A stretch of DNA of 64,000 nucleotides from an uncultured Bacteroidota bacterium (GCA_963846585.1 CAWJWO010000002.1:263592-327591), one strand, 5' to 3'. Positions 13,996-58,669 are shown, counted from the stretch's first letter. Notes: a model not told the origin generated them from the letters alone. A program made the numbers and translations.

Positions 13996-14341
13996 AAGGA
14001 AAGTAGGCAGAGAATGGAAGAAGGCAGAAGCAGTGGGACATGAAAAGACATGAAAAGACGTGAGACGTGAGACGTGAAAAGAAGACAGAAGGCAGAAGAC
14101 AGAAAAAAGATAAAAGATTTAAGGAAAAAGATTTGAGATTTTAGAATCTAGATTTTAGAATTGAGATTTATAAATATCAATCTGGTAAAATATATTAAAT
14201 CTTAAATCACCAATCGCAAATCTGGAATCTTAAATCAAAGAGTCTTGGCTCATGGTTCTTGGCTCTTGGCTCTGTTTTTACAACCAACAACTAAGCACTA
14301 AGCACTAAGCACTAAGCACTAAGCACTAAGCACTATATAAA
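13996..14341 (+). repeat. Composite mosaic repeat element, copy A (fills the MCCase-beta / hydratase spacer)
   Basis: Module order: purine-rich GGCAGAAG units, (GACGTGA)x3 at 14057-14077, GAAGACAGAAGGCAGAAGACAG, AGATTT/GAGATTT-rich core, agtcttggctcatggttcttggctcttggctctg at 14241-14274, caaccaacaa, then (CTAAGCA)x6 at 14291-14336, then ATG. Collinear with the reverse complement of 34108-34396. Confidence 0.85.
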
Positions 14342-15127
14342 ATGGACACATTCGAAACAATCAAAGTTGAATTAAACGAAAAAGTCGCTACCATTTACCT
14401 AAACAGGCCTGAAATACATAATGCATTTAATCATAAAATGGTACTTGAGATAATTTCTGCACTAAAGTCTGTTGCAGATAATCAAAAACTAAGAGTTTTG
14501 GTAATTCGTGGCAATGGAAAATCTTTTTGTTCCGGGGCTGACTTAAACTGGATGAAGGAAGTTGTTGAATTCGATTTTGAAAAAAATTACAATGAAAGTC
14601 TGTTATTAGCTAATTGTTTCCAAACGATTTATCATTTCCCTGTACCGGTAATTTCTTTTGGACATGGCTCAGTAATTGGTGGCGGTAATGGATTTCTGGC
14701 TACCTCAGACTTTGCAATATGTACTAAAAATACTCATTTTGCATTTACTGAAGTAAATATCGGGTTGGTGCCGGCTGTAATTTCCTATTTTATTATCAGG
14801 CGTATGGGAATAAATAAAACTAAAGAATTAATGCTCTCCGGACAACAATTCAATGGAATTGAAGCTGAACATTGGGGGCTTGTAAATTATGCGATTGACG
14901 AGTCTGATACTGAGAATTTTATAAAATCCACTATCCAAAGATTAATTGAAAAAAGTCCACAGGCGTTAAAAAGAACAAAAAATTTACTTAATAACAATGA
15001 TTTATTATTCGATGAAAATGCATTTTTAAAAGAATCGGCAATTATAATTTCTCAGGCACGTGTTTCAAAGGATGGGCAGGAAGGAATGCGATCATTTTTA
15101 GAAAAAAGACGGCCGGTATGGGATTAG
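14342..15127 (+). CDS. Enoyl-CoA hydratase/isomerase family protein (methylglutaconyl-CoA hydratase by context)
   Basis: 261-aa crotonase fold: IYLNRPEIHNAFN, GNGKSFCSGADLNWM, FGHGSVIGGGNGF, EGMRSFLEKRRPVW. Lies between the two MCCase subunit genes. Confidence 0.85.
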   Translation: MDTFETIKVELNEKVATIYLNRPEIHNAFNHKMVLEIISALKSVADNQKLRVLVIRGNGKSFCSGADLNWMKEVVEFDFEKNYNESLLLANCFQTIYHFPVPVISFGHGSVIGGGNGFLATSDFAICTKNTHFAFTEVNIGLVPAVISYFIIRRMGINKTKELMLSGQQFNGIEAEHWGLVNYAIDESDTENFIKSTIQRLIEKSPQALKRTKNLLNNNDLLFDENAFLKESAIIISQARVSKDGQEGMRSFLEKRRPVWD

Positions 15128-15179
15128 AATGAACTAATCAGGCAAAGTCTTGTTCAGATGATGCCTATAGTATCCCAAA

Positions 15180-17174
15180 ATGTTAAATTTTAGTAAAATA
15201 TTAATAGCAAACCGGGGAGAAATTGCACGGAGAATAATTCGTACAGCCCGCGAAATGGACTACAAATGTGCAGTTATTTATTCTTCCGGGGAAATAAATG
15301 CTGATTTTGTATCCGAAGCTGATGAAGCATACGATTTAGGTAATGGCAACATTCATGAAACTTACCTCAATATAACAAAAATAATTGACATTGCCCTCAG
15401 AAACGGGATTCAGGCAATTCATCCCGGTTATGGCTTTTTATCTGAAAATTATAAGTTTGCAAAAGCTTGCGAAGAAAATAACATTGTATTTATTGGGCCA
15501 ACAAGTGAAAATATAAAATTGATGAGCCAAAAAACTGCAGCCCGTGAATTTGTAAAATCACTGGGAATTCCACTTTTGGAGTCAGTTCAGGGAAACAGTC
15601 CGGAAGAATTATTGAAAAAGTCAGGGAAACTTAAATATCCTGTTATAGTAAAGGCAGATACCGGTGGTGGTGGCAAAGGCATGCAAATAGTTAAAAAACC
15701 TGAAGAACTATCAAAAATACTTGAAATTTCCCAACGGGAAGCTTTGGCATATTTTGGTGATTCAAATGTTTATCTGGAAGAATATCTTGAATATCCCCGA
15801 CACATAGAAGTTCAGATATTAGGTGATTGTTATGGCAATATTATTCATCTTTACGAAAGGGAATGTACAATTCAAAGGAGACACCAAAAAATTATTGAAG
15901 AAGCTCCTTCTCTTTGCCTGTCAGATAATTTAAGAAATAAACTGTTGGAGGCATCCTTGACTATTGCCCGGAAAATGAAGTATTTGAATGCCGGAACAAT
16001 TGAGTTTTTGGTTGATGAAAATCAGAATTTCTATTTCCTCGAAATGAATACCAGAATTCAGGTCGAACATCCGGTTACTGAAAAAATTACGGGAATAGAC
16101 CTGGTCAGGGAACAACTGAATATTGCTTCCGGAAACCGGCTTAATTTTAAACAGGAAGATATTTCGGTCAATGGCCATGCTATAGAAAGCCGTATATATG
16201 CTGAAAACCCTTTTAATGAATTTTTGCCTTCAGTGGGATCAGTAATAAAATATCAGGAACCAACAGGCAGGTCTGTAAGAATTGATTCTGCATTATCAGG
16301 CCCTGCCCTGATATCTTCGGATTTTGACCCAATGATTGCCAAGGTAATCTCAGGTGATTTGAACAGGGAAAGCGCCAGGCTTAACCTTATCAGGTTTCTG
16401 CAGCAATATATTATACATGGAATTGATACAAATATTCCATATCTGATTGAGATTTTAAATAATCCAGGATTTATACAAAACTCATATTCAACATCATTTT
16501 GTAAAGATTCCAAAAATATGCTTCAGGCTTCGTATATTAAAAAAATGCATGGATTATCTATAGAACTTATAACTGCCGCTTTCCTGATTTTTACTTTCCC
16601 GTTTTTAATAAATCATGTCAATACAAATGATAACAGGGTATGGAAAAGTTTAGGATATTGGAGAAATATAATGGTTACAGAAATAAATATATTGGATGTC
16701 AATTATAACATAACATTTAAAAAGCAAGGCACAGATAACTTTACATTTTGTATTAATGAAAAAGTCCCGTTACTGGTGAAAGGCCGGGAAAAGAACGGAA
16801 GGGTAGATTTTTTATTCTCCGGTCAAAGACATGTAGCTTTTATTTCATCTTTAAGTGATATTTATTATTTATCTATTAATGGAAATACATATACAATCCG
16901 GCGTAATGATATCACAAAAACAAAATTTGTAAAAGAAAGCGGCCTGAATTCATTTAACCAACAAAACAAGATATTGGCCACCATAAATGGCAAGATTATA
17001 AAAATGAATGTAAAAATGAATGAAAAAGTAAACAAAGGAGATATATTAATGGTTGTTGAATCAATGAAAATGGAAAACTACATTCTTGCTCCTAAAGGGG
17101 GAAAAATCACTAATATTTGTGTTAACACAGGTGACCTGGTAAAAGGCAGGGATGTGTTGGCCATTTTAACGTAA
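15180..17174 (+). CDS. Methylcrotonyl-CoA carboxylase alpha subunit (biotin carboxylase + BCCP domain)
   Basis: 664-aa ORF. Biotin carboxylase N-terminus KILIANRGEIARRIIRT, ATP-grasp GGGGKGM, EMNTRIQVEHPVTE, and a C-terminal biotinyl-lysine motif VESMKMEN. Confidence 0.9.
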   Translation: MLNFSKILIANRGEIARRIIRTAREMDYKCAVIYSSGEINADFVSEADEAYDLGNGNIHETYLNITKIIDIALRNGIQAIHPGYGFLSENYKFAKACEENNIVFIGPTSENIKLMSQKTAAREFVKSLGIPLLESVQGNSPEELLKKSGKLKYPVIVKADTGGGGKGMQIVKKPEELSKILEISQREALAYFGDSNVYLEEYLEYPRHIEVQILGDCYGNIIHLYERECTIQRRHQKIIEEAPSLCLSDNLRNKLLEASLTIARKMKYLNAGTIEFLVDENQNFYFLEMNTRIQVEHPVTEKITGIDLVREQLNIASGNRLNFKQEDISVNGHAIESRIYAENPFNEFLPSVGSVIKYQEPTGRSVRIDSALSGPALISSDFDPMIAKVISGDLNRESARLNLIRFLQQYIIHGIDTNIPYLIEILNNPGFIQNSYSTSFCKDSKNMLQASYIKKMHGLSIELITAAFLIFTFPFLINHVNTNDNRVWKSLGYWRNIMVTEINILDVNYNITFKKQGTDNFTFCINEKVPLLVKGREKNGRVDFLFSGQRHVAFISSLSDIYYLSINGNTYTIRRNDITKTKFVKESGLNSFNQQNKILATINGKIIKMNVKMNEKVNKGDILMVVESMKMENYILAPKGGKITNICVNTGDLVKGRDVLAILT

Positions 17175-17178
17175 AAAA

Positions 17179-17357
17179 GTGCTTAGTGCTTAGTGCAAAG
17201 TGCATAGTACAGCAATATGCCGGCATTAAAAGCCTTCAAAAAATAACGTGCTAAAATAGTGAATTTAATATTATAAAAACAAGTCACATAAGAAGATTAT
17301 ACAACATTACAACATTACAACATTACAACATTACAACATTTACAACTTTACAACATT
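17179..17357 (+). repeat. TAGTGCW array (17179-17210) and (ACAACATT)n array (17301-17357)
   Basis: gtgcttagtgcttagtgcaaagtgcatagtac starts 5 nt after the MCCase-alpha stop. acaacatt x5 followed by tacaactttacaacatt lies 43 nt upstream of the ACAD start. Confidence 0.9.
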
Positions 17358-17399
17358 AAAATTTTTATAATATAATATATATTAATACACCCCTTATAT

Positions 17400-18545
17400 A
17401 TGGATATTTATTCAAATGGTGCTCATGAGACGTTAAGACAAAAAGTTAAAAATTTTGCTGAAAATGAAGTTCGGCCCAAGGCACGTGAACTGGATGAAAA
17501 AGAACAATTTTCTCCTGAATTGAGCCTTAGAATGGGTGAACTGGGGTTATTCGGGCTTACAATTCCAAAAAAATACGGGGGACAGGGATATGATTATCTT
17601 TCATTAATTATAGCTGTGGAAGAACTTGCCAGGGTGGATAGCTCCCAGGCAGCCATTTTAGCCTCACATAATTCGCTTGGTATTGGTCCAATATATAATT
17701 ACGGAACTGAGGAACAACGCAAAAAGTATTTACCACAACTTTGTAATGGAAAAGCACTTTGGGCCTTTGGACTTACTGAAAACAATGCCGGATCAGATTC
17801 CCGCAGTACCGAATCCATCGCCTTATTAGATAACGATCATTGGATTATAAACGGAACAAAGATTTTTATTTCCAACGCTTCTGCACCAATTTCGGCTGGC
17901 GTTACTATCCAGGTAATTACTGGCCAAAACGATGGGCAAAAAGAGCTTTCCACAATTATTGTTGAACAGGGAACAAAGGGATATCGTGCCGAAAAAATTC
18001 ATGGAAAAATGATGTGGCGCGCCATCGATACTGCACGTTTGTATTTCGATAATGTAATTGTTCCTAAAGATAATTTATTGGGAGGATTAGGCAAAGGATC
18101 GGGGATTATGCTTGAAACTTTAGATTCAGGCAGATTATCAATAGCAGCTATGGGACTCGGTTTAGCAACCGGAGCCTTCGAAATGGCTATGAATTATTCA
18201 CATAAACGATGGCAATTTGGAAAACCTATTGCCAAATTTCAATCTATTGGCTTCAAATTAGCAGATATGGCTACCAAAATAGAACTGGCAAGAAATATAC
18301 TTTATAAAGCATGCTGGCTTAAAGATTCTAACCAACCTTTTGCAAAAGAAGCTGCCATGGCAAAACTATATTGTTCCGAAATTGCAAAAGAAATTGCTGA
18401 TGAATCACTTCAAATACATGGAGCCTATGGACTAATGCGCGAATACGATATTGAACGGTTTTACCGCGATCAAAGATTATTGCAAATTGGTGAAGGTACT
18501 TCAGAAATACTGAGAATAGTTATATCAAAACATCTTGGAATATAG
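17400..18545 (+). CDS. Acyl-CoA dehydrogenase (isovaleryl-CoA dehydrogenase-like by context)
   Basis: 381-aa ORF with ACAD motifs: WAFGLTENNAGSD, QFGKPIAKFQ, ERFYRDQRLLQIGEGTSEI. Substrate cannot be assigned from sequence alone. Confidence 0.85.
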   Translation: MDIYSNGAHETLRQKVKNFAENEVRPKARELDEKEQFSPELSLRMGELGLFGLTIPKKYGGQGYDYLSLIIAVEELARVDSSQAAILASHNSLGIGPIYNYGTEEQRKKYLPQLCNGKALWAFGLTENNAGSDSRSTESIALLDNDHWIINGTKIFISNASAPISAGVTIQVITGQNDGQKELSTIIVEQGTKGYRAEKIHGKMMWRAIDTARLYFDNVIVPKDNLLGGLGKGSGIMLETLDSGRLSIAAMGLGLATGAFEMAMNYSHKRWQFGKPIAKFQSIGFKLADMATKIELARNILYKACWLKDSNQPFAKEAAMAKLYCSEIAKEIADESLQIHGAYGLMREYDIERFYRDQRLLQIGEGTSEILRIVISKHLGI

Positions 18546-18549
18546 AATT

Positions 18550-18580
18550 TAGTGCATAGTGCTTAGTGCATAGTGCTTAG
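18550..18580 (+). repeat. TAGTGCW heptamer array
   Basis: tagtgcatagtgcttagtgcatagtgcttag, 5 nt after the ACAD stop. Confidence 0.9.
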
Positions 18581-18848
18581 GAGTAAGAGATTAGTATATT
18601 TATAAATTTTAAAACATTTTAATAGACTTGTAACTTGAAACCAGTAACTATTTACATACTACTTACTAATGCGAATTAAGAGTTAAAATATTTATACTTA
18701 TTATCTAATAATTAGCAGAATATCATTTACATTAGCCAACTTTAACCCCAACCCCTTAAAAAGCATAGCCGTCAGGTTATGTCTATATAGAGCAGAATGA
18801 TAGATATTTAGTGTAAATGTAATAAAATATTAGTGTAATTAAGAGCGT

Positions 18849-19337
18849 ATGTCAACGACTGGATTTGTATATATTATGACCAATAAGAACAAAACAACTT
18901 TATATATTGGGGTTACAAACAATTTATGCAGAAGAATACATGAGCATAAAAATCATTTGATAAATGACACTTTTACAGATAAGTACAATATTGAATACTG
19001 TATTTATTACGAAGAATTTCAATATTTTGATTTGGCAATACAAAGAGAAAAAGAATTAAAAAAGTGGAACCGTCAAAAGTTTATTTCGAGTGACGCGAGA
19101 AAACTCAAGATTAACAAAAAGAACCCCGAATGGAAAGTGCTGGTAACAGAGCGTGGCTTTGTTCGGAATAATAAATCATTTTCTCAACATGTTTCGGACA
19201 TAGTCAATGAATTACAACCAATTAAAGAGATTCCTCCCTGCGGTCGGAATGACGACCAGCAGAATTGTGGCGTTGCTGGAGGTGAAGAGAGTGCGGCAAA
19301 GCCGCACTCTCTTCACCTCCAGCTCTCTGACCAATAA
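18849..19337 (+). CDS. GIY-YIG nuclease family protein (COG2827-like) with atypical C-terminal extension
   Basis: N-terminal GFVYIMTNKNKTTLYIGVTNNLCRRIHEH...YYEEF...AIQREKELKKWNR is the GIY-YIG core. The last roughly 60 codons run through a GC-rich hairpin region and are probably not a native domain. A 9-codon in-frame insert (ISSDARKLK, about 19082-19108) overlaps a repeat-motif copy at 19080-19106. Confidence 0.75.
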   Translation: MSTTGFVYIMTNKNKTTLYIGVTNNLCRRIHEHKNHLINDTFTDKYNIEYCIYYEEFQYFDLAIQREKELKKWNRQKFISSDARKLKINKKNPEWKVLVTERGFVRNNKSFSQHVSDIVNELQPIKEIPPCGRNDDQQNCGVAGGEESAAKPHSLHLQLSDQ

Positions 19338-19369
19338 CGACAGTCATTTCGAGCGAAGCGAGAAATCTC
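19227..19369 (+). other. GC-rich compound stem-loop region at the 3-prime end of the GIY-YIG ORF
   Basis: The outer 27-nt arms 19227-19253 (gagattcctccctgcggtcggaatgac) and 19343-19369 (gtcatttcgagcgaagcgagaaatctc) are 22/27 complementary. They enclose a 6-bp hairpin (19256-19279) and a perfect 23-bp stem (19275-19323). Confidence 0.6.
19275..19323 (+). other. Perfect 23-bp inverted repeat with a 3-nt loop
   Basis: gctggaggtgaagagagtgcggc-aaa-gccgcactctcttcacctccagc read directly. GC-rich, inside an AT-rich locus. Confidence 0.9.
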
Positions 19370-19514
19370 AAATAAAGTATTATAATTGTATATAAGCATT
19401 TTACAAGCGTTAACCTGACGGCTATGCCTTTTTAAGGGGTTGGGGTTAAAAAATACTAAAATGAATAAATATTGTCTTGAATAATTATAACAATAATTAA
19501 ATCCTTAATTCGCA

Positions 19515-19535
19515 TTACGACTTACGACTTACGAC
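19515..19535 (+). repeat. (TTACGAC)x3 array
   Basis: ttacgacttacgacttacgac ends 7 nt before the fni ATG. The same unit occurs at 12305-12318 and 61692-61705. Confidence 0.9.
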
Positions 19536-19542
19536 TAAATTT

Positions 19543-20535: not shown

Positions 20536-20554
20536 TTGAATTAAATTCATTTAC

Positions 20555-21862: not shown

Positions 21863-21875
21863 CTCATATTGTTTA

Positions 21876-22811: not shown

Positions 22812-22867
22812 TGCATAGTGCATAGTGCATAGTGCTTAATGATTAGTGCTAAATGATTAGTGCTTAG
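22802..22867 (+). repeat. TAGTGCW heptamer array (about 9 units, degenerate at the distal end)
   Basis: tagtgcttagtgcatagtgcatagtgcatagtgcttaatgattagtgctaaatgattagtgcttag. Contains the stop codon of the GYDIA kinase gene. Confidence 0.9.
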
Positions 22868-22901
22868 AACATATTATTTATATATATTAGTTAACAACAT
22901 T

Positions 22902-24940: not shown

Positions 24941-24952
24941 AGATTAATTTTA

Positions 24953-25072
24953 AAATTTGAAAATGTGTAAATTTGAAAATGCAACCTGTAACCTGAAATA
25001 TGTAACCTGTAACCTGCAACTAAGCACTATGCACTAAACACTATGCACTATGCACTATGCACTATGCACTAT
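24953..25072 (-). repeat. Mosaic: (AATTTGAAAATG)x2 + (AACCTGT)n + CTAAGCA/CTATGCA array
   Basis: 24953-24981 has two aatttgaaaatg copies. 24983-25019 aacctgtaacctgaaatatgtaacctgtaacctgc. 25020-25072 ctaagcactatgcactaaacactatgcactatgcactatgcactatgcactat, overlapping the stop of the minus-strand HAMP-GAF gene. Confidence 0.9.
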
Positions 25073-26718: not shown

Positions 26719-26728
26719 ACCACATAAA

Positions 26729-26877
26729 TTAGTTGTTAGTTGTTAGTTGTTAGTTGCTAGTTACAATAATTTATCAAATATTAAATTTAATGGAATTTAA
26801 TAAATCCTTTACGATTAATCAAAAATAAATTAAATAAACCTATAATAACCTAATAAACCATTACAACTTTTACAACC
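26729..26877 (+). repeat. (TTAGTTG)x5 array (26729-26764) plus degenerate AAACC/TACAAC units (26836-26877)
   Basis: ttagttgttagttgttagttgttagttgctagttac lies 10 nt from the minus-strand start at 26718. aaacctataataacctaataaaccattacaacttttacaacc abuts the patB-like stop. Confidence 0.85.
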
Positions 26878-28067: not shown

Positions 28068-28877
28068 TTGAAAAAAATGTTGCAGTTTTACCGGATGAAT
28101 TATGTGACCCCTAAAAAAAGCCTGGGACAGCATTTCCTGAAGGACCGGAATATTGCCCAAAAAATTGTGTCTGGCATACTGCCCGGTAACATAGCAACTG
28201 TTTTAGAAATCGGTCCCGGAATGGGTATACTTACAGGATTCCTCTTGGAAAACCCTGCCTATACTACCTATGCAGTTGAAATAGACCGTGAATCAATAAA
28301 TTATCTTTCTGCTAACTATCCGGAAATTACAAACAGGATAATTTCAGGAAATTTTCTGGACCTTGAACTTTCGGAAATTGTTCCAATCCCAATGATAATT
28401 ATTGGCAATTTCCCCTATAATATAGGATCTCAAATTTTTTTTAAAATATTGGATAACAAAAATATAGTTCAGCAAGTAGTATGTATGGTGCAGAAGGAAG
28501 TAGCTGAGCGCATTGCCTCAAGGCCATCCTCCAGGACCTATGGAATTTTAAGCGTGTTGCTGCAGGCGTTTTATAATATAGAATATCTTTTTACCGTGAA
28601 CGAACATGTTTTCTCTCCTCCCCCTAAAGTAAAATCAGCTGTTATAAGGCTTACAAGAAACAATACCAAAGAATTGGCATGTGATGAAAGGCTATTTTTT
28701 AAAGTAGTTAAAACTTCATTTAACCAGCGGCGAAAAACCATTCATAATTCCTTGAAAAGTATAGTGAAAGAACATCCCGAAAATGATATTTTCCGTAAAA
28801 GGCCAGAACAATTGAATGTTGCTGAATTTGTTACATTAACAAATATAGTTAATCAGTGCTTAGTGCATAGTGCTTAG
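28068..28877 (+). CDS. rsmA: 16S rRNA (adenine1518-N6/adenine1519-N6)-dimethyltransferase
   Basis: PKKSLGQHFL, LEIGPGMGILT, GNFPYNIGSQI, FNQRRK. The real start is probably an ATG at 28077 or 28095. The last six codons (CLVHSA) and the stop are encoded by the TAGTGC array. Confidence 0.9.
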   Translation: MKKMLQFYRMNYVTPKKSLGQHFLKDRNIAQKIVSGILPGNIATVLEIGPGMGILTGFLLENPAYTTYAVEIDRESINYLSANYPEITNRIISGNFLDLELSEIVPIPMIIIGNFPYNIGSQIFFKILDNKNIVQQVVCMVQKEVAERIASRPSSRTYGILSVLLQAFYNIEYLFTVNEHVFSPPPKVKSAVIRLTRNNTKELACDERLFFKVVKTSFNQRRKTIHNSLKSIVKEHPENDIFRKRPEQLNVAEFVTLTNIVNQCLVHSA

Positions 28878-29028
28878 TTGTTGGTTGTTAGTTGTTAGTT
28901 GTTAGTTGTTGGTTGTTAGTTTTTAGTTGTTGGTTGTTAGTTGTTAGGAAATTATACAACCTTTACAACCTTTACAACCTTTACAACCAATTTCAATTTT
29001 ATAAACCTTATAAACCAATTTTCAAATT
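28855..29028 (+). repeat. Four-module mosaic: TAGTGCW, (TTAGTTG)~10, (TACAACCTT)x3.7, (TTATAAACC)x2
   Basis: 28855-28877 agtgcttagtgcatagtgcttag. 28874-28947 ttagttgttggttgttagttgttagttgttagttgttggttgttagtttttagttgttggttgttagttgttag. 28955-28988 tacaaccttx3+tacaacc. 28999-29016 ttataaaccttataaacc. 29017-29028 aattttcaaatt. Confidence 0.9.
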
Positions 29029-29135
29029 ATCTCAATGAAATATTATAAAAGTTTGATTTAACGAAACAATTGTCATAAACTTTTATATTTTTGAAACTTT
29101 GTTTGAAAATTAAGTATAAAAAATATAACTTAAGA

Positions 29136-30044
29136 ATGAAACCAACATTATTAATACTGGCCGCAGGAATGGGAAGCCGTTATGGCAGCCTGAAACAGGT
29201 AGATCCTGTTGGACCATCGGGTGAAACTATATTGGAATATTCAGTTTACGATGCTATAAGGGCAGGTTTTGGAAAAGTTGTTTTCGTTATCAGAAAGGAC
29301 CTGGAAAAAGATTTTAAAGAAATATTTATTCTAAAATTACAAAAACATATAGATGTTAGTTATGTGTTTCAGGAATTAGATATGGTCCCAAAAGGTATTC
29401 CGATCCCTGTTGATAGAGTAAAGCCTTGGGGCACAGGACATGCAGTATTAGTTGCATCTTCAAAAATAAAAGAACCATTTGCTGCTATAAATGCTGATGA
29501 TTATTATGGTGTTGATGCTTACAAAAAGATGTCTGTTTACCTGTCGGGACTTGGCAATTCAGAATCAACCTATGCAATGGCCGGTTTTGACCTCAACAAT
29601 ACGCTTTCTGAACATGGATTAGTGTCCCGTGGCATTTGTGAAATTGATAAAAACTCCTTTTTAAAAACTGTAGCAGAACGGTCAAAAATTGGCCGTGATA
29701 ATAATGGTGTAGGTTATCAGGATGAAAACGGAAAGTTTGTTTATGTTGATGAAAAATCAATAGTTTCAATGAATTATTGGGGATTTACACCTATGTTTTT
29801 TTCGCAGCTTGAAGAACAATTTCATTCTTTTATTTCAGCAAACTTTAGTAATCTTAAAGCGGAAATCTTTCTGCCAATGGTCATTGACGATCTTATAAAA
29901 TCTAAGATTGCAAAAGTTAAGGTATTACATAGTTCCGATCTTTGGTGTGGAGTAACCTATAAAGAAGACAAGCCTCTGGTAGTAACTAAAATTAAAGATT
30001 TGGTCAATGCAGGGGTCTATCCGAAGAATCTTTGGCTGGAATAG
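29136..30044 (+). CDS. Sugar-phosphate nucleotidyltransferase family protein (NTP_transferase fold)
   Basis: N-terminal LILAAGMGSRYGSLKQ glycine-rich NTP loop, then KPWGTGHAV and INADDYYG. The track ORF starts at 29091, but the ATG at 29136 gives the conserved N-terminus. Confidence 0.7.
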   Translation: MKPTLLILAAGMGSRYGSLKQVDPVGPSGETILEYSVYDAIRAGFGKVVFVIRKDLEKDFKEIFILKLQKHIDVSYVFQELDMVPKGIPIPVDRVKPWGTGHAVLVASSKIKEPFAAINADDYYGVDAYKKMSVYLSGLGNSESTYAMAGFDLNNTLSEHGLVSRGICEIDKNSFLKTVAERSKIGRDNNGVGYQDENGKFVYVDEKSIVSMNYWGFTPMFFSQLEEQFHSFISANFSNLKAEIFLPMVIDDLIKSKIAKVKVLHSSDLWCGVTYKEDKPLVVTKIKDLVNAGVYPKNLWLE

Positions 30045-30186
30045 TGATGAGGTGATTAAGTGATTAAGTGATTGAGTGATTGAGTAATTAATATTATAAT
30101 TAAAATAAACCTTATAAACCTTATAAACCTTATAAACCTCATAAACGAATAAACTAATATACCTTATCAATTTACAATTTACAATT
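30044..30186. repeat. Mosaic: (GTGATTRA)x6 + (CTTATAAAC)n + (CAATTTA)x2.7
   Basis: 30044-30091 gtgatgaggtgattaagtgattaagtgattgagtgattgagtaattaa. 30105-30154 ataaaccttataaaccttataaaccttataaacctcataaacgaataaac. 30168-30186 caatttacaatttacaatt. Confidence 0.9.
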
Positions 30187-34107: not shown

Positions 34108-34396
34108 TATAAAATAGTGATTAGTGCTTAGTTGTTAGTTGCAAAAACAGAGCCAGGAGCCAAGAACCAGGAGCCAAGACTTTATGATGATTCTAGATTT
34201 AATATTTTAATAGTCTTTCTAAATTGTAAATCTTAAATCTCAAATCTGGAATCTCAAATCTTTTATCTTTTTTCTGTCTTCTGCCTTCTGTTTTCTGATT
34301 GCTGTCTTCTTTTCACGTCTCACGTCCCACGTCTCACGTCCCATATCTTGGTCTTGGTTCCTGGCTCTTGGCTCTTGGTTCCAACCTGAAATTACA
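34108..34396 (-). repeat. Composite mosaic repeat element, copy B (fills the thyA / folA spacer)
   Basis: The reverse complement reads ggaaccaagagccaagagccagg..., (GACGTGR)x4, gaaaagaagacag...cagaaggcagaagacagaaaaaagataaaagatttgagatt..., aagtcttggctcctggttcttggctcctggctctgtttttgcaactaacaactaagcactaatcacta, then the ATG of folA. This is collinear with copy A. Confidence 0.85.
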
Positions 34397-37882: not shown

Positions 37883-37985
37883 TATAAGAGGTTTATAAGG
37901 TTTATAAGGTTTATATTAATTATAATATTTTTCACTTAATCACTTAATCACCTCATAACTTAATCATTTAATCACCTAATCACTC
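37883..37985. repeat. Mosaic: (GGTTTATAA)x3 + (CACTTAAT)~6
   Basis: 37883-37915 tataagaggtttataaggtttataaggtttata. 37933-37985 cacttaatcacttaatcacctcataacttaatcatttaatcacctaatcactc. This is the reverse-complement arrangement of the blocks at 1821-1932 and 30044-30154. Confidence 0.9.
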
Positions 37986-41081: not shown

Positions 41082-41150
41082 TGCATAGTGCATAGTACTT
41101 AGTGCATAGTTCACATTACTAGCAACTAGCAACTAACAACTAACAACTAA
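41079..41150. repeat. TAGTGCW array (41079-41114) followed by CAACTAR array (41119-41150)
   Basis: tagtgcatagtgcatagtacttagtgcatagttcac begins with the parB stop codon. ctagcaactagcaactaacaactaacaactaa ends 6 nt before the next start. Confidence 0.9.
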
Positions 41151-41156
41151 TTTGAA

Positions 41157-43399: not shown

Positions 43400-43401
43400 A
43401 A

Positions 43402-43512
43402 TAGTGCTTGGTTCATAGTGCTTAGTGCATAGAAGTTGTAAAGGTTGTAGGGGTTATAGAGGTTGAAGAGGATGTAAAAATACAACTTTACAACTTTTAC
43501 AACCTTTACAAC
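43402..43512. repeat. TAGTGCW array (43402-43432) and inverted TACAACCTT arrays (43435-43512)
   Basis: tagtgcttggttcatagtgcttagtgcatag. Then gttgtaaaggttgta (43435-43449) is perfectly complementary to tacaacctttacaac (43498-43512), with degenerate units between them. Confidence 0.9.
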
Positions 43513-43537
43513 TATATAACCATAATACTTTTCAAAT

Positions 43538-45040: not shown

Positions 45041-45044
45041 AATA

Positions 45045-47452: not shown

Positions 47453-47530
47453 TTCCCGCGATCAGAATTTTGTGCGAATTTAGGCTATTTTAATATATAA
47501 TTCAACATATATTATACAAATAAGTTCGAT

Positions 47531-47555
47531 AAAAAAAGGCCTGCCCAGGCAAGCC
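47531..47555 (-). terminator. Intrinsic terminator between htrA and rpoD
   Basis: Minus-sense ggcttgcc-tg-ggcaggcc followed by ttttttt (plus strand aaaaaaaggcctgcccaggcaagcc). GC-rich stem plus U7. Confidence 0.65.
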
Positions 47556-47558
47556 CTA

Positions 47559-47700
47559 TTTTAGTTTTTAGTTGTTGGTTGCTAGTTGCTAGCTGCTAAA
47601 GGTCATTTATGCAATATTTAATTTATTTGGAATGCATTAAAATATAAAAATATAATCGAATAAATATTTAATTAACTAACAACCATCAACTAACAACTAA
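47559..47700. repeat. Inverted TTAGTTG / CAACTAA arrays bracketing an 82-nt AT-rich loop (htrA-rpoD spacer)
   Basis: 47559-47599 ttttagtttttagttgttggttgctagttgctagctgctaa. 47672-47700 ttaactaacaaccatcaactaacaactaa. The arms 47561-47589 and 47672-47700 are 25/29 complementary. Confidence 0.85.
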
Positions 47701-47701
47701 A

Positions 47702-49183: not shown

Positions 49184-49308
49184 TTTTTCTGATTTAATTA
49201 CAAAATATTACAGGTAAACTACAAAATAACTGCCATATTTTTGTATTTAATGATTAATTAACAATATTTAACAGGGAGATACTATTATGAAGCTTTAGAT
49301 TGATATAC

Positions 49309-49416: not shown

Positions 49417-49473
49417 AACTATTCATTTGTAATAGTAATTTTATTTACAAATTTTGTCCATCTGCAAATCGTT

Positions 49474-51513
<2,040 letters not shown>

Positions 51514-51589
51514 TTAAAGCAACGTAAAGATAACAAAATACCCTGTTAATACGACTTATTTTACAGTCATATTGTTGTTAAATTATTAA

Positions 51590-52705: not shown

Positions 52706-53000
52706 TGTGTTCTTTATCTATTGTTTGTATGAGTCTTAATAAACCTCTACAATTTAAATAAATAAACCTGAAATTGCAAACTTTGCTAAAGTCTTTACAT
52801 TATTATCAATGATTTCTATGTTCCTTGAAGAAGTCAAATTTTTAATAATAATATCCCGATTAATACTAATTAATCTAACGTATTTTGAAAATTTCAGCAA
52901 TTTTATCAGTTCCTTTAAATAACATAAATATTATCAGGACAATAATACCCCAAAGGGGTATTAGCAACGCCCAGTGATATGAATTAATATATAAATTTAT

Positions 53001-53600
53001 GCCCTGAAAGGGCCTAAGAAACAGCACAGGGCAACGCCCTGTGAAATATTGTGAATACAATGCCACAATCATTATCAAAAGTCTATGTACATATTATATT
53101 TAGTACAAAGAACAGGCAAAATCTTATTGATGACAACATTGAAAATTCATTGCATGATTATTTGGGAGGTATTTGCAAAGGATTAGAGTGTAATCCTGTC
53201 AAAATTGGTGGACATAAAGAACATGTACATATACTATGTCTTTTATCTCGTAAAGTGGCTCAAATGAATTTGGTTGAAGAACTAAAAAAACAATCTTCCA
53301 AATGGATCAAAACGAAAGATAACGTATATTCAAATTTTTACTGGCAGGATGGATATGGTATTTTTTCAATTAATCCTAATCAAACGGATATAGTTATTGA
53401 ATATATTGAGAAGCAACATGAACATCATAAAAATAATAGTTTCCAGGTAGAATTCCGTGATTTTCTAAATAAATATAATGTCGGATATGATGAACGTTAT
53501 GTTTGGAATTAGGCTGATTCCCCTTCAGGGCTTAAAATTCTGATTTGCCAATTTGTTCACAGGGCGTTGCCCTGTGCTATTGATTATGCCCTTTCAGGGC
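53001..53600 (+). mobile_element. RAYT gene with flanking REP-like GC-rich hairpins in inverted orientation
   Basis: The left hairpins gccctgaaagggc (53001-53013) and agcacagggcaacgccctgtgaa (53023-53045) recur as exact reverse complements on the right: ttcacagggcgttgccctgtgct (53556-53578) and gccctttcagggc (53588-53600). An extra hairpin, taccccaaaggggta, lies at 52946-52960. Confidence 0.7.
53060..53512 (+). CDS. REP-associated tyrosine transposase (RAYT) / IS200-like Y1 transposase
   Basis: VYVHIIFSTKNRQNLI, GGHKEHVHILC (HUH motif), and FYWQDGYGIFSI with the catalytic Tyr region. The track ORF starts at the GTG at 53051. Confidence 0.85.
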   Translation: MPQSLSKVYVHIIFSTKNRQNLIDDNIENSLHDYLGGICKGLECNPVKIGGHKEHVHILCLLSRKVAQMNLVEELKKQSSKWIKTKDNVYSNFYWQDGYGIFSINPNQTDIVIEYIEKQHEHHKNNSFQVEFRDFLNKYNVGYDERYVWN

Positions 53601-53630
53601 AAATGCGAATTGCCACTAACAACTAGCAAT

Positions 53631-55316
53631 TTACAAAGAATAACTCAGCCCTGCCATCAAATTAAATCTCTGTGAAGGATACTGGTTCCAGACATAATAC
53701 TTTGATGCTGTGAAATTATTCAAATGCAGCCAAAAAGATAAAATTTTGGTATACCTGTATTCTGCGCCAAGATTAAAATCAAGTACTGAGGGCATAACTT
53801 TATAATTCCCATCAGGAATATACGGAAAATCTCTGGAGTAAATTTTGGCATATCGCTTTCCAAGTTCCAAAATATCAAAGTTTACAAGTATTTTATTACC
53901 AAGGTTATATTTTGCCGAGAATGTAGCATCTGATTTTGGTTTTTGCCAGGCATATTGCTGTTGAAACATTTGGTACTGATATATATTGATTTTAGCAGCA
54001 AACGACAATTCTGTTGAAAAATCGTAACTGGCATCAAGCGTTAATGTTAACTGGTTTGCATTATCATATACTACATTGAAATGGTTTTGCAAAACAGTAG
54101 CAGCGTCATTTACATAAAAGTATTGATTTGTGAATTGAGAATAATCAAATTTTAAATTATAGGAAACCTTTGAAACTAAACTGCCTTTAATTCCACCGTA
54201 TAATGATAACCGGTCGTTAGAGTTTTTTACTAGCAAATCGGGTAGTATAAAGGGATTTTCCGTTGCAATATTCTGATAACTATGATTAATGTCTTTACCA
54301 TAAATGCCAATGAAAGGCAGTAATATATTTTTAACTACAACAAACTGGAAATCTGCCATCGGATAAAGTCTTAGGGAAACTGTATTCATTTGATCTTCAA
54401 AAGTAATATTTAATCCCAGTTTAAGGCGGTATTCTTCATTTGAGAAACAGACCGAAGGATATATCACTAACAATGAATTTACAGCACCTGTAGAATCAAG
54501 TGTTTTGTCCCGGTGCAACTGGTCAAAACTTAAATCAAGATCAAACAATTTATTTGCATATAGTTGGGAAAACTTAGCATTCAGGTTTAAATCATTTTCT
54601 ACATGGTTAAACCTGTCCTGAAAATAATCATACTTAATATCTCCATGATAATTCAATCTTGATGAGTCGGAGTGAAATGATTGAATACCGGCTTTTATAT
54701 CAGCCAAAAAGTAATTTTGACGAATATTGCCTTTCTGTAAAATAGTATCAATTTGAGGATTGGAACCATAATCATACACAGTATTGCTTCGAACACCGCC
54801 TTCTGCAAATATACAGGACTCACCGATAAATTTTTTACCAAATACTGTTGCAGAAGCATTGGAATATCCGGCAAATACACTTTGATTATTATCCAAAGTA
54901 ATAGCACCCGATGAAGATTGGTAATCCAATTTAGCACCAGCACTATATTTCCTGGAGCGTAAAGTATTCAAATACAGTTCAGCCATGGGAGTTTGATAAT
55001 TCCCCAGTCCCAATATCAAATATCCGTTGTAAAGCTTCGATAAAGGCATATTGAGCATTTTGGCTGCATTAATTTGTGAAACCTCATACTCGGTATTAAT
55101 CATCACAGGCACAACGTTATATTGAAAAGATGGCTTAACGGTAGTTGAATCATTAATTATTGGGAGAACATTTAATTTTTTGGCATCTGCAACTGAAGGC
55201 TGGTATGGTTGCACAACTTCAACTTCCTTCTTTATTGTTGCCTGGCTAAATACCTCTCCAATACTTATAATACTGAAAATAACGATTAATACTATATTAA
55301 TTGTTTGTTTTGTCAT
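53631..55316 (-). CDS. Putative outer-membrane beta-barrel protein (hypothetical)
   Basis: 561-aa ORF with signal peptide (VIFSIISIGEVFSQA). Alternating-hydrophobic strands throughout and a C-terminal LMAGLSYSL beta-signal-like end. No family recognised. Confidence 0.5.
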   Translation of the reverse strand: MTKQTINIVLIVIFSIISIGEVFSQATIKKEVEVVQPYQPSVADAKKLNVLPIINDSTTVKPSFQYNVVPVMINTEYEVSQINAAKMLNMPLSKLYNGYLILGLGNYQTPMAELYLNTLRSRKYSAGAKLDYQSSSGAITLDNNQSVFAGYSNASATVFGKKFIGESCIFAEGGVRSNTVYDYGSNPQIDTILQKGNIRQNYFLADIKAGIQSFHSDSSRLNYHGDIKYDYFQDRFNHVENDLNLNAKFSQLYANKLFDLDLSFDQLHRDKTLDSTGAVNSLLVIYPSVCFSNEEYRLKLGLNITFEDQMNTVSLRLYPMADFQFVVVKNILLPFIGIYGKDINHSYQNIATENPFILPDLLVKNSNDRLSLYGGIKGSLVSKVSYNLKFDYSQFTNQYFYVNDAATVLQNHFNVVYDNANQLTLTLDASYDFSTELSFAAKINIYQYQMFQQQYAWQKPKSDATFSAKYNLGNKILVNFDILELGKRYAKIYSRDFPYIPDGNYKVMPSVLDFNLGAEYRYTKILSFWLHLNNFTASKYYVWNQYPSQRFNLMAGLSYSL

Positions 55317-55344
55317 AATATCCTATTTTACTGTATTTTAATTA

Positions 55345-55520
55345 GAACCATGAACCAATAATTAGTGCTTAGTGCCCAGTGCTTAGTGCTTAGTAAATAA
55401 AGTATAAACATTGGAAATAATAATACTCTTTTTTAGCCCTGTATTCCAATATCATTTATCCTCATGTAAATATCATAATATTCAACTTCTAAGCACTAAG
55501 CTCTATGCACTATGCACTAT
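55345..55520. repeat. Inverted TAGTGCW / CTAAGCA arrays bracketing a 94-nt loop (TPR gene to beta-barrel gene spacer)
   Basis: 55362-55394 ttagtgcttagtgcccagtgcttagtgcttagt. 55489-55520 ctaagcactaagctctatgcactatgcactat. The arms are 27/32 complementary. gaaccatgaaccaa lies at 55345-55358. Confidence 0.85.
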
Positions 55521-58500
55521 TTCTTCACGTCCACTTCAATATCCTGTTGTTTTTCCTTTACCTGCGAACCTGTATATTGTGAAACAAGCTTGTCATGTTT
55601 TACTTTTGCTTCGGTTTTAATCCCGTCATTATTATTTTCGTAGTAATCAAGAATGCTTTGCAGCGTATTTACTGCCTGAAATTCATCGTTACGGTCAACA
55701 TAAATATCGCTGAGCAAAATAAAACTCTTGCCAAGCCAATATTGATAAGGAGTATTTTTATCAATGAAATTCATAATTTCTTTTTGGGCGTCGTCCTTTT
55801 TATTTTCATCGTAATACAATTTTGCCAACAGGTATTTGCATTCTGAACCTTCTTTACTTTTCAAATCTTTGGCAACCAACTTCAGTTCCTCTGCAGCTGA
55901 TGTCGTATTGTTGTTTTCAAGATACGATTTTGCCATAATGTAATGAGCTTCCCTGTAAATTTCCCCGGGTAGGTTTTCATAAAGAAGCAGTGCTTTTGCA
56001 CTTACAATTGCATTATCGGAATTTGAAAGCTTAAAATTACAACGCATCTGTCCCAGTCTGGCTTCCATCACATTGCTCTTTATTTCAGCTTCAGTTTCCA
56101 AGCGTTTATATAGTTCCAATGCTTTGGCAAAATTTTCCTTTTCGAAATAAATACCTGCTGCAACAAATAATGATTGCTCGGTAAATATATTACGCGAGGC
56201 TGAAATAACATATTCATACCCCTTTAAGGCCTCATCCTGTTTATGATTTTTATTGTTGCAATCGGCTATGTAGAAATTGGCATTCAGAATAAAATTTCCA
56301 TTTTTGTATTTTTCAAGGTATTTTGAAAATTGTTGTATTGATTTTTCACAGTCTCCACTCATATAAATATTTTCAGCTGAAGAATATGTCAAGGAATCCT
56401 GTTCGGAGAGCCTTAAGTTTGAACTTTGTCCTTTACTTTCAAGGTAAGCAAAATAAGTATCAATATCATTTTTATCAACATAAACAGATTTTAATCCAAT
56501 ATATGCATCATGCGATTCAGGTGTACCCGGGAACTGATCAATTACTTTTTTATAGGCAGCAATAGCTTCTGATTGTTTATCCTGATTAAAATAAATAAGG
56601 CCTAATTGAAGATAAGCTTTTGCAACATAACTGCTTATTGAAAACTCATTGATAATTCTATAAAAAGTCCTTATAGCCTGATCATTCAAATTAAGGGTCA
56701 CATATGCCCTGCCAAGTTCAAATAATGCGTGGTCAACATATAAAGATTTCGGATAATCCTTCATCAACTCATTCAGAAAATTTACCTTTTTTTCCGGCCT
56801 GTTTACTAAACCAAGTGAAAATGCTTTTTGAAAGAGAGAATAATCGGAATCAGCTGCTTTTAAGTTTATTGCTTTTTCATAATTTTCAATCGCAACCCAA
56901 TATGATTGTTTCATGAAATAGCAATCTCCTATACGGTTATATGCATCAGCAATTGTTTTTCCTTTTGTATTTTTCTGCAGGTCAGTATAGCGCCGGAACC
57001 AGTCGAGTGCTTCGTCAAACTTATTAAGATTAAACCAGGAATAAGCAATATTATAGTCAACAAAATTGTATTCGTTAAGATTTGCCGCCAGTGGATAAGT
57101 AATAAAGCGGTTATACGTTTCTATTGCCTCTGAATAATTATGTAGCCTGTAATTTGCCTCTCCTTTCCAATAATATGAACGTGCTGCAATTTCTTTATCA
57201 AACTCTTCATATTCAAGAGATTTATCGAATAACAAAATTGATGTATCAAATTTCTGATTATTAATAAGCTCTAACCCTCTGAAAAAAGCAATATGCTGAT
57301 AAGCTTTTCTTACGCTATTGTCCTTTATTTTAATTTTTTGAAGCGATTCAAGTGCTGCACGGTAGTTTTTTGTTGTCATATAAGCCATCATCAGATAGTT
57401 ATATGCCATATCGCTTCTATTTGAGTGAGGATAAAGCTTAAGATACTCGTTAAATGCTTTTACAGCTTCATTAAATGGCGATAACGATAATTCGTAAGTC
57501 GAAACTGCATAATAATATAATGCATTTTCCTTAATATCAGGGTCAAAATCCATTGAAGATGCCGAAGAAAATGCAAGGCGTGCTTTTTGTATGTCGCTGT
57601 TATGTATGTAACAATCAGCTAAATGATACAATGCATTCTGGCTTAGGGCTGTATTTACCAATGTTATTGGTTCAAAATTCCTGATCGCATTGTCATAATC
57701 ATCAGCTTTATAATAGGCAAAAGCAAGTTGATACCGATCTTCAGGGGTCATTGATTTCGCCTTTTCAGCAAATTTTTCCAGGTATGGGAGTGATTCCTTA
57801 AATTTGCCGAGACGATAGTACGATTCTCCGATTATCCTCGACATTTCTGCTACCCTTTTTTCGACCACAGAATCGAGTAAGGGTGGTGCATACTCTACAA
57901 CTTTATCATACTTTTTTTGCAGGAAATAAATTTGTGCAATATAATACGGTACAATTGATGCAAATGTCTCATCATCACGAAGCCTTAGAAATCCTTCAAG
58001 GGCAGTTTCGTAATTTTTTTGTTCATACGCTATATGTGAATAATAATATAAGGCTGCAGAAGTATATTTTGTATCAATATCCTTAATTTCATAAAAGTTT
58101 AACCTGGCTTTTTCGAAATTTTTATCCATAAAATAACAATAACCTGATTCGAAATGATATTCTGCCAGTTGATCACTATTAAGTTTATGTACATCCACTT
58201 TTTCGAACCATTCAGCAGCTCTTTTAAATTTTTTGTTGTTATACTCGTAGTGTGCCAAATTAAAATAAGCATCATTCACTTTACAATTTGCAGGATTTGA
58301 AGAGATAAAACTGGTAATCCGTTTCACTGCATCAGGATTAAAAAGTTCCATTGCACATAACGAGGCATAATATTCTGCCGTGGCTTTAGTTTCGGAATTA
58401 ACCAACGCTTCCTTTTTAATGACAACATCAAAATAATGCTGAGCAGCCACATATTTTTGTTTTTCAAACAATTCCAAACCTTCCTTCAAATTCTGGTCAG

Positions 58501-58591
58501 GTAACGAATAAAATAAGCTTTTTTGAGCATATATGCCTGTAACCAAAAAATTAAACAGGATCAATATTAGAAAAATTCTATTTACTATCAT
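55517..58591 (-). CDS. Large secreted tetratricopeptide-repeat protein
   Basis: 1024-aa ORF with signal peptide (LILFNFLVTGIYAQ). More than 15 TPR-like A..Y..A...Y repeats along the whole length. The stop codon is the first unit of a TAGTGC array. Confidence 0.8.
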   Translation of the reverse strand: MIVNRIFLILILFNFLVTGIYAQKSLFYSLPDQNLKEGLELFEKQKYVAAQHYFDVVIKKEALVNSETKATAEYYASLCAMELFNPDAVKRITSFISSNPANCKVNDAYFNLAHYEYNNKKFKRAAEWFEKVDVHKLNSDQLAEYHFESGYCYFMDKNFEKARLNFYEIKDIDTKYTSAALYYYSHIAYEQKNYETALEGFLRLRDDETFASIVPYYIAQIYFLQKKYDKVVEYAPPLLDSVVEKRVAEMSRIIGESYYRLGKFKESLPYLEKFAEKAKSMTPEDRYQLAFAYYKADDYDNAIRNFEPITLVNTALSQNALYHLADCYIHNSDIQKARLAFSSASSMDFDPDIKENALYYYAVSTYELSLSPFNEAVKAFNEYLKLYPHSNRSDMAYNYLMMAYMTTKNYRAALESLQKIKIKDNSVRKAYQHIAFFRGLELINNQKFDTSILLFDKSLEYEEFDKEIAARSYYWKGEANYRLHNYSEAIETYNRFITYPLAANLNEYNFVDYNIAYSWFNLNKFDEALDWFRRYTDLQKNTKGKTIADAYNRIGDCYFMKQSYWVAIENYEKAINLKAADSDYSLFQKAFSLGLVNRPEKKVNFLNELMKDYPKSLYVDHALFELGRAYVTLNLNDQAIRTFYRIINEFSISSYVAKAYLQLGLIYFNQDKQSEAIAAYKKVIDQFPGTPESHDAYIGLKSVYVDKNDIDTYFAYLESKGQSSNLRLSEQDSLTYSSAENIYMSGDCEKSIQQFSKYLEKYKNGNFILNANFYIADCNNKNHKQDEALKGYEYVISASRNIFTEQSLFVAAGIYFEKENFAKALELYKRLETEAEIKSNVMEARLGQMRCNFKLSNSDNAIVSAKALLLYENLPGEIYREAHYIMAKSYLENNNTTSAAEELKLVAKDLKSKEGSECKYLLAKLYYDENKKDDAQKEIMNFIDKNTPYQYWLGKSFILLSDIYVDRNDEFQAVNTLQSILDYYENNNDGIKTEAKVKHDKLVSQYTGSQVKEKQQDIEVDVKK

Positions 58592-58619
58592 AATAAGTAA
58601 TTAAAGTAGAACCTCAAGA

Positions 58620-58669
58620 TTAGTTGTTAGTTACTAGTTGTCAGTTGTTAGATGTCAGTTGTTGGTTAC
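58620..58669 (+). repeat. (TTAGTTG)-type array, about 7 degenerate units
   Basis: ttagttgttagttactagttgtcagttgttagatgtcagttgttggttac, 29 nt from the minus-strand start at 58591. Confidence 0.85.

Follow-up and report, generated by a model that had tools for sequence, protein, structure and literature searches.

Outward strand polarity of TTAGTTG and unrelated heptamer arrays near gene ends in a Bacteroidota genome, and its relation to described heptanucleotide repeats

Heptanucleotide repeats are reportedly the dominant class of long simple sequence repeats (SSRs), scattered across lineages and attributed to polymerase slippage, and the cyanobacterial short tandemly repeated repetitive sequences (STRR1-3) have the units CCCCAGT, TTGGTCA and CAACAGT; we know of no description of the STRR or of the long SSRs in which polarity with respect to the ends of open reading frames (ORFs) plays a part. 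Repetitive extragenic palindromic (REP) units, which are imperfect palindromes of ~35 nt, are linked to RAYT transposases. Here we analyse arrays of the heptamer TTAGTTG (CAACTAA on the opposite strand) in the intergenic spacers of a 64,000-nt stretch of DNA from an uncultured Bacteroidota bacterium (GCA_963846585.1, CAWJWO010000002.1:263592-327591; the whole stretch is called the window below, and positions are counted from its first letter). The orientation of these arrays follows the nearest gene end. Such a strand rule has already been described by Rehm et al. (2015, PLoS One, PMC4692102) for the strongly intergenic heptamers GGGAATC of Xanthomonas and GGGGA(C/T)T of Nostoc/Anabaena, which lie almost exclusively nearer to the 5'-neighbouring ORF irrespective of ORF orientation, and which also occur as inverted pairs; their function was left open.

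The arrays described here share with the heptamers of Rehm et al. the same geometric strand rule and the proximity to genes: with theirs the preference is concentrated within about 50 bp of a start or stop codon, and in our material 155 of 167 arrays within 60 nt of an ORF end obey the rule. They differ in that the units of Rehm et al. have runs of G and were discussed as G-quadruplexes, whereas TTAGTTG contains no GG and is unable to form such a structure. A second related system is the TAACTGA repeats (MacGregor, 2015, Front Microbiol, PMC4679880), which occur in Beggiatoaceae, in Cyanobacteria and in some Bacteroidetes, frequently together with other heptamers, and which lie mostly 'forward', 1-43 nt upstream of starts; a translational role was proposed for them. 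Orientations are mixed in Microcystis, and one set in Flexibacter litoralis sits just after a stop, in reverse orientation. Our arrays resemble these in the CAACTAA sense a few nucleotides before starts, in a genome without visible Shine-Dalgarno (SD) motifs, and in their spread over Cyanobacteria and Bacteroidetes, but the two units share only five of seven positions (AACTGAT vs AACTAAC) and a mirror rule for stop ends is not part of the TAACTGA description. TTAGTTG is not among the three named STRR units either, and the host of the window is Bacteroidota-like and not a heterocystous cyanobacterium. As in the heptanucleotide SSRs ascribed to slippage, the arrays are tandem, vary in copy number between related spacers whose flanks still align and are kept out of coding sequence. 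REP units and the bacterial interspersed mosaic elements are likewise abundant short intergenic repeats, some of which form hairpins between genes inside operons; the window units, however, are 7-9 nt long, non-palindromic and tandem, and hairpins need two oppositely oriented arrays in one spacer.

A first-pass annotation of the window had listed nine arrays, with TTAGTTG in gene sense lying 3' of genes, CAACTAA lying 5' of them, and all nine consistent. The relation holds, and it can be restated as one geometric rule on the nearest gene end: the strand read outward from that end, be it a start or a stop, is TTAGTTG, so the gene lies on the 5' side of the array whatever its own orientation. 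Eight of the nine fit, while the array at 47559-47599 is equidistant from its two genes and thus ambiguous, which leaves 8/8 unambiguous arrays, or 5/5 if the solid ones alone are counted. Taken alone, the window polarity is only suggestive, and its significance comes from a cross-genome census. A scan for (TTAGTTG)3 in one genome per species, among which the window's own genome was not included, gave at least 118 loci in roughly 90 genomes, mostly Cyanobacteria (Stigonema, Calothrix, Rivularia, Microcoleus, Kamptonema and others), with 28 loci in Bacteroidota and a few in other phyla. Among these listed loci, to which all census counts below refer, 77 of the 99 arrays of at least three TTAGTTG copies with both neighbours called obey the rule (p=2.5e-8), 38 of them after stops and 39 before starts, so the polarity is real and reaches far beyond the window. 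Within 60 nt of an ORF end the counts are 68/78 for the same arrays and 95/105 for all TTAGTTG-like arrays. Eighteen census arrays were scored as 'coding', mostly in over-extended ORFs, and they also obey. In many of the listed Bacteroidota loci the CAACTAA-sense arrays approach the ATG to 2-10 nt, compared with 6-28 nt from starts in the window, and at stop ends the first unit often supplies the TAG that terminates the gene. Arrays are found, and obey the rule, in spacers between co-directional, convergent and divergent genes alike; a specificity for operons is not supported as stated.

The polarity is not specific to the TTAGTTG unit, and it is lost beyond about 60 nt from ORF ends. Period-7 arrays unrelated to TTAGTTG at the same loci, which lie outside the ascertainment, obey in 60 of 62 cases within 60 nt and in 48 of 49 within 30 nt. 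In the census, the STRR-like units TGTTGAC and GGTCAGT follow the same polarity, and cyanobacteria obey the rule at stop ends in 42/43 cases. The window gives the same picture for all unit classes together: of the 34 arrays no more than 60 nt from a gene end, 33 have the G-richer strand pointing outward. Measured outward, the G-C skew of array DNA is +0.43 (start ends) and +0.42 (stop ends); the corresponding values for the other spacer DNA are +0.09 and +0.12. When all census arrays are pooled, obedience falls with distance from 108/113 at up to 10 nt through 24/25 (10-30 nt) and 23/29 (30-60 nt) to 12/24 (60-100 nt) and 6/21 (100-200 nt); beyond 60 nt only 24 of 60 arrays obey. Half of the pooled arrays are no more than 10 nt away from an ORF end.

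The window itself is 33% G+C and ~89% coding, with spacers making up ~11%, and short tandem arrays of all classes occupy 2105 of 6305 spacer nt, about one third. Tandem Repeats Finder (TRF) returned more than 100 rows for the window, in at least nine unit classes, including TAGTGC[AT], TTAGTTG, TCTTGGC, AGACGTG, TTAAATC, ACTTACG, ATTAAGTG, ATAAACCTT and TACAACCTT. Exact TTAGTTG occurs 28 times, compared to 12.1 +/- 3.1 in dinucleotide shuffles (none of 100 shuffles reaches 28); 21 of the matches are in spacers and the seven coding ones are all single units. All TTAGTTG arrays in the window, and all 123 arrays in the listed census genomes, are intergenic, although this absence from coding sequence is automatic, because with three or more copies every frame of both strands contains a stop. 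TRF finds head-to-tail period-7 TTAGTTG arrays of 3.9-10.6 copies at six window sites; of the nine arrays originally listed, these six are solid, two consist of two units and one is not an array. The gene names assigned in the first-pass annotation are confirmed by Pfam, the flanking genes encoding a carboxyltransferase, enoyl-CoA hydratase, GAF protein, RsmA-type methylase, DHFR, ThyA, ParB, DUF5683, sigma-70, HtrA, a TPR protein and an AMP-binding enzyme.

On the stop side, the longest array (28874-28947, plus strand, 10.6 copies, 88%) begins at the rsmA stop, which is the TAG of its first unit (28875-28877), and its G-richer strand runs outward from there. The adjoining TAGTGCW array (28855-28878, plus, 3.4 copies), joined to it in a B-to-A junction, had been placed after the rsmA stop; the ORF in fact reads through it, so that it makes up the last seven codons. 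In the htrA spacer, the array at 47672-47700 (minus strand; TRF 47674-47700, 3.9 copies, 80%) reads TTAGTTG in minus sense and starts 1 nt after the htrA stop. It forms the 5' arm of one long hairpin, the 3' arm of which is the degenerate array 47559-47599 (annotated on the plus strand; TRF 47569-47598, 4.3 copies, 82%), CAACTAA-type in minus sense. Directly downstream of both in minus sense lies an intrinsic-terminator-like hairpin (47536-47557, minus strand, AGGGCTTGCCTGGGCAGGCCTT followed by TTTTTAT). Array 47559-47599 had been read as a leader of rpoD, but since it is 106 and 102 nt from its two genes and upstream, in minus sense, of the terminator at 47557-47536, it belongs instead to the htrA 3' region. 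None of the TTAGTTG arrays in the window was detected as an intrinsic terminator, and the htrA arrays have a separate canonical one after them. A single CAACTAA unit on the plus strand (25017-25023, minus-strand entry) is joined to a (GCACTAT) array abutting the GAF-gene stop, which in minus sense gives stop, TAGTGC array and one TTAGTTG unit. A TAGTGCT array of 6.6 copies also follows directly after the stop of a 73-aa DUF2795 ORF (61382-61603, below the 100-aa cut-off).

On the start side, the array at 26729-26763 (plus strand; TRF 26729-26762, 4.9 copies, 96%) reads (CAACTAA)n in minus sense and ends 10 nt before the ATG of the GAF gene (start 26718). The CAACTAA/CAACTAG array at 41118-41150 (minus strand, so that the plus strand reads CAACTAA; 4.7 copies, 96%) is separated by 6 nt from the TTG with which the DUF5683 gene starts; ahead of it, a TAGTGCA array extends from the parB stop. 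A degenerate TTAGTTG/TCAGTTG array in a divergent spacer (58620-58669, plus strand; TRF 58620-58667, 6.9 copies, 73% matches) is CAACTAA-type in minus sense and lies 28 nt before the start of the TPR gene (58591). The two short cases are 14281-14294 (minus strand), where the plus strand has the units CAACCAA CAACTAA directly 5' of an (ACTAAGC)6.6 array (14290-14335) that stops 6 nt short of the hydratase ATG, and 34128-34141 (plus strand), two exact TTAGTTG units reading CAACTAACAACTAA in minus sense, followed by GCACTAATCACTA and the folA start; the latter is the paralogous counterpart of 14281-14307. The last claimed array (53614-53629, minus strand, CACTAACAACTAGCAAT), beside the hairpins that flank an IS200-like gene, contains no exact unit but about two imperfect ones, was not called by TRF, and is marginal.

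The first-pass annotation had further proposed that the two repeat classes nest in a fixed order. On the T-strand the window does have three TAGTGN-to-TTAGTTG junctions and one with a single TTAGTTG unit, and none in the reverse order. The window cases are partly paralogous, however. The composite multi-array spacer between the carboxyltransferase and enoyl-CoA hydratase genes (13996-14341, plus strand), whose top strand goes from G-rich in the first half to C-rich in the other, is a paralog of that between thyA and folA (34108-34396, minus strand): it is 79% identical to the reverse complement of the latter over ~300 nt, with a 74-nt core at 91% and differences in copy number by whole units, so the two cases of CAACTAA, CTAAGCA and start in succession are not independent. 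Elsewhere the module order is the same in one census locus (L098), opposite in another (L081) and interleaved in a third (L037). A fixed order is not supported. Sub-arrays of mutationally related units in the same orientation are common neighbours in the census, TTAGTTG standing with TTAGGTG, TCAGTTG, TTAGTCG or TTGGTTA. The orthologous carboxyltransferase-hydratase spacer in a relative (L122, 78% protein identity) is only ~80 nt long; the degenerate units directly ahead of its ATG, GCACTAA CAACTAT GCACAAT CAACTAT, are present singly. That of a second relative has a different sequence, first G-rich, then C-rich. The arrays are lineage-specific expansions with rapid turnover, in which the strand skew is retained. 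No terminal inverted repeats or target-site duplications are visible around the composite spacers, though no systematic search for duplications was made.

Copy number varies widely between genomes: in Winogradskyella pacifica (L080, 7069-7229) 23 exact TTAGTTG copies abut a stop and are followed by TCTTGTC and TCTTAGC arrays, and in bacterium nzgw385 (L017) a mixed TTAGTTG/TTAGTTA array exceeds 300 nt. Another window spacer, 30044-30130, in which a AGTGATTA array is followed by a ATAAACCTT array, recurs in inverted form at 37889-37975 (87 nt, 86% complementary). The genes on either side are co-directional in both places, and a third similar spacer is found at 1816-1930. Such a AGTGATTA/ATAAACCTT cassette is strand-symmetric in its G/C polarity and therefore obeys the outward-G rule in either orientation.

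Before turning to mechanism, the translational setting has to be considered. The best translated matches of the window are loci of Bacteroidales and Flavobacteriaceae, and it has Bacteroidota-type features such as a 286-aa sigma-70 and a DUF5683 gene. No SD motifs are visible before the start codons of window genes. Array-free genes have the Bacteroidetes -7 box TAnnTTTG at -23 to -25, and array-abutted starts have no such box. The genome thus looks like that of a Bacteroidota member not using SD sites. A cluster of leucine-catabolism type (12388-18545: carboxyltransferase, enoyl-CoA hydratase, biotin carboxylase/BCCP, acyl-CoA dehydrogenase) has array-filled spacers of 346 and 225 nt between its cistrons; as its array-abutted starts lack the TAnnTTTG box, the arrays there are probably intercistronic RNA. 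Rfam 15 has no match at gathering score anywhere in the window.

What is the origin of the polarity then? We put a rough probability of 0.45 on the reading that the arrays are slippage-born heptanucleotide repeats, the orientation of which is filtered near genes by selection on untranslated mRNA, as judged from sequence and genome comparison. Slippage would generate heptamer arrays, and since three or more TTAGTTG copies close all reading frames, the arrays would stay non-coding. Next to a start codon only the G-free strand would survive as sense: (CAACUAA)n offers no AUG, GUG or UUG, no SD-like site and no self-structure, and could serve as an open A-rich ribosome landing region. (UUAGUUG)n, which is a chain of UUG...UAG mini-frames in all three frames, would in the same place give each frame upstream of the true start codon a UUG start and a UAG stop. 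More generally, start codons occur about once per unit on the G-rich strand, and the C-rich strand is free of them in 47/50 arrays at start ends and in 54/55 at stop ends. Directly downstream of a stop codon it is the C-free, G-containing strand that is sense, and a leader-like G-free tract in this position may load ribosomes unproductively. For many other units the stops in all frames come from the G-rich strand alone; at stop ends of other heptamers all three frames are closed on the G-rich strand in 29/45 arrays and on the C-rich one in 8/45. The filter would cease to act at distances above ~60 nt from an ORF end, and where both orientations of one unit fall within one spacer they would pair into long hairpins. 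Selection would thus act through translation initiation, and in Bacteroidetes, which lack SD sites, initiation is tuned by mRNA structure and upstream bases and AUG is depleted near starts (Baez et al., 2019, PMC6847099). In 9 of 11 window cases the start-proximal array is less paired than the remainder of its spacer. The model accounts reasonably well for the leader side, and the trailer side is its weakest step.

Several observations weigh against this reading. The rule is equally strong at start ends (62/67) and stop ends (93/100) in the pooled census, which hints at one symmetric cause and not at two filters. The supply of stops and self-structure fail to explain the polarity of TTAGTTG after stops, as both its strands carry stops and both fold at 0.0 kcal/mol. 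For two arrays next to starts, those before 43538 and 55316, folding predicts sequestration in hairpins (paired probability 0.88 and 0.82). Non-array spacer DNA has a weak skew of the same sign, which is ~0 at cyanobacterial start ends; with a background this weak, the arrays do not simply follow general composition of untranslated regions (UTRs). As for the census, its neighbours come from a simple ORF caller run on 8-kb blocks, several loci share one genome, and a single Stigonema metagenome-assembled genome gives many; with one array taken per locus from the pooled arrays, 80 of 89 still obey.

Of the alternatives to selection on slippage-born repeats, the one that fares best, though still unlikely, is a functional palindrome with the two orientations as its arms: an array following a stop would pair with that before the next start, in RNA or in single-stranded DNA, the resulting stem-loop would terminate, stabilise or translationally couple the genes, and the polarity would reflect that design. 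The first-pass annotation had taken such a palindrome, A-B...B'-A', as the ideal form of the spacer and had proposed folding full spacers. We folded 24 window spacers as RNA against dinucleotide shuffles and found five clearly structured, one of which (10751-10839, z = -5.5) is a plain terminator. With this set aside, four of 23 fold better than shuffles (z -3.9 to -5.6). The htrA spacer (47453-47701, z = -3.9) does pair its TTAGTTG and CAACTAA arms, and long array-built hairpins are predicted in 34108-34396 (z = -5.6, imperfect, with the last ~30 nt before the folA start unpaired), 55317-55516 (z = -5.4) and 43400-43537 (z = -5.0). Elsewhere an inverted CAACTAA-like partner is present in 26 of 93 TTAGTTG-array spacers, far above a rough chance estimate of ~0.003 per spacer, with clean examples in L041, L061, L074 and L119. 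Palindromic spacers are thus real and recurrent, but they are a minority and not the norm. About 72% of the census spacers have no partner, and five TTAGTTG-bearing window spacers fold no better than shuffles: 13996-14341 (z = -0.6), 26719-26869 (z = -1.1), 28878-29090 (z = -2.2), 41082-41156 (z = -0.6) and 58592-58856 (z = 0.0). The left and right arrays are often of unrelated classes, e.g. AGTGATTA ... ATAAACCTT, and both htrA arms lie upstream of a separate canonical terminator. Moreover, a palindrome could equally be built C...T, so pairing gives no reason for the G-rich arm to be gene-proximal.

Rather less probable is that the arrays are multimeric sites for a sequence-specific single-strand RNA- or DNA-binding protein (S1, cold-shock, or a ring protein reading a UAG-N4 periodicity) and define a post-transcriptional regulon. 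Regulons of this type have been proposed for TAACTGA (MacGregor, 2015, PMC4679880) and for Nostoc heptamers (Pradhan et al., 2022, bioRxiv 10.1101/2022.06.06.494920), and in the latter work deletion of heptamers altered the regulation of a recO reporter in Nostoc and E. coli. The recurrence of TTAGTTG arrays in Cyanobacteria, Bacteroidota and a few other phyla, and their anchoring within a few nucleotides of start codons, would fit such sites. Dozens of unrelated units share the strand rule, however (60/62, with at least nine classes in one window), which makes a dedicated protein per class implausible. The arrays are also not conserved at the orthologous site, the flanking genes have no common function, and no candidate protein was identified in this analysis.

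The indifference of the rule to which gene end is concerned could also mean that the starts and stops of all genes are subject to one and the same mechanism, with G-free tracts for entry and C-free tracts for exit making up a general 'entry/exit' code of transcription units; we regard this, too, as quite improbable. Close to genes the orientation is nearly deterministic (the 108/113 at up to 10 nt given above), and the rule extends over Cyanobacteria, Bacteroidota and, according to the literature, Xanthomonas. Were the code real, the arrays would be more than tolerated products of slippage: changes in copy number would tune translation or termination heritably, and leader and trailer arrays of one class, where complementary, might pair in trans between mRNAs.

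The hardest of these alternatives to sustain, and in our view a distant candidate, is that the mirror geometry is a footprint of how arrays are made in DNA, either because repeats are synthesised outward on 3' ends, at breaks or at the boundaries of genes, or by the spread of strand-symmetric cassettes able to insert in either orientation. It would account for a rule that is indifferent to gene orientation and equally strong at starts and stops, for the half of all arrays that lie within 10 nt of an ORF end, and for the copies seen in the window, namely the 79% identical composite paralogs and the inverted 87-nt pair 30044-30130 and 37889-37975 (86%). Spacer-wide synthesis predicts polarity throughout the spacer, though, and it is gone beyond about 60 nt. 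The ortholog comparison indicates expansion in place from single units, and neither terminal inverted repeats, target duplications (for which no systematic search was made) nor an associated enzyme was seen.

The remaining candidates can be dismissed briefly. A replication-strand cause fails because both orientations occur in the same stretch of the window, tracking local gene ends. Loading of Rho at rut sites fails because cyanobacteria, which to our knowledge lack Rho, obey at stop ends in the 42/43 cases given above, and because CAACUAA has no YC dinucleotide. Asymmetry of self-structure through G-U wobble fits most heptamer units, the G-rich strand folding more stably in 97 of 98 untied cases, but not TTAGTTG, which is not self-complementary and for which (UUAGUUG)8 and (CAACUAA)8 both give a minimum free energy of 0.0 kcal/mol. 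Background UTR composition is rejected on the weakness of the non-array skew, and an artefact of ORF calling on the grounds that a longest-ORF bias would oppose the rule for TTAGTTG and that the 18 'coding' arrays obey too.

The window contains other elements besides the arrays. A GIY-YIG-domain ORF of 162 aa (18849-19337), flanked by inverted repeats of ~38 nt (AACCCCAACCCCTTAAAAAGCATAGCCGTCAGGTTA at 18744, with its complement ending near 19447), sits between the acyl-CoA dehydrogenase gene and the next gene, and the whole element (18744-19450) has the appearance of a small insertion, mobile or of homing-endonuclease type. Inverted repeats of 46 nt (53000-53045 and 53556-53601, 91% complementary), which contain G+C-rich hairpins CACAGGGCGTTGCCCTGTG, enclose an IS200-like Y1 transposase gene (53051-53512); the arrangement (53000-53601) is similar to that of REP/RAYT or IS200/IS605 elements. 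Ten consecutive C residues at 12147-12156, within the divergent spacer (714 nt) that lies upstream of the carboxyltransferase gene, are a possible slippage-prone homopolymer. Four neighbouring minus-strand ORFs (655-2996 and 8812-10750) have common internal repeats of ~120-150 nt (CCAAACCAT... motifs; direct-repeat families D3-D8, D12 and D13), which suggests paralogous repeat-domain proteins; a faint Reg_prop match is seen at 655-1773.

Over the description by Rehm et al. (2015), the present analysis adds that the rule operates without G-quadruplex potential, in Bacteroidota, and with a distance limit near 60 nt. Together these points narrow the possible causes to something that acts on untranslated mRNA ends or on gene boundaries, and they lead to the prediction that inversion of an array should alter translation or 3'-end behaviour. 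For annotation, array orientation is a strong cue to which side of a spacer holds a gene end. The arrays further account for the fragmentation of short-read assemblies of such genomes at spacers: Logan short-read contigs of the source organism are ~3 kb long and end inside arrays. Heptamer repeats are abundant in two major phyla.

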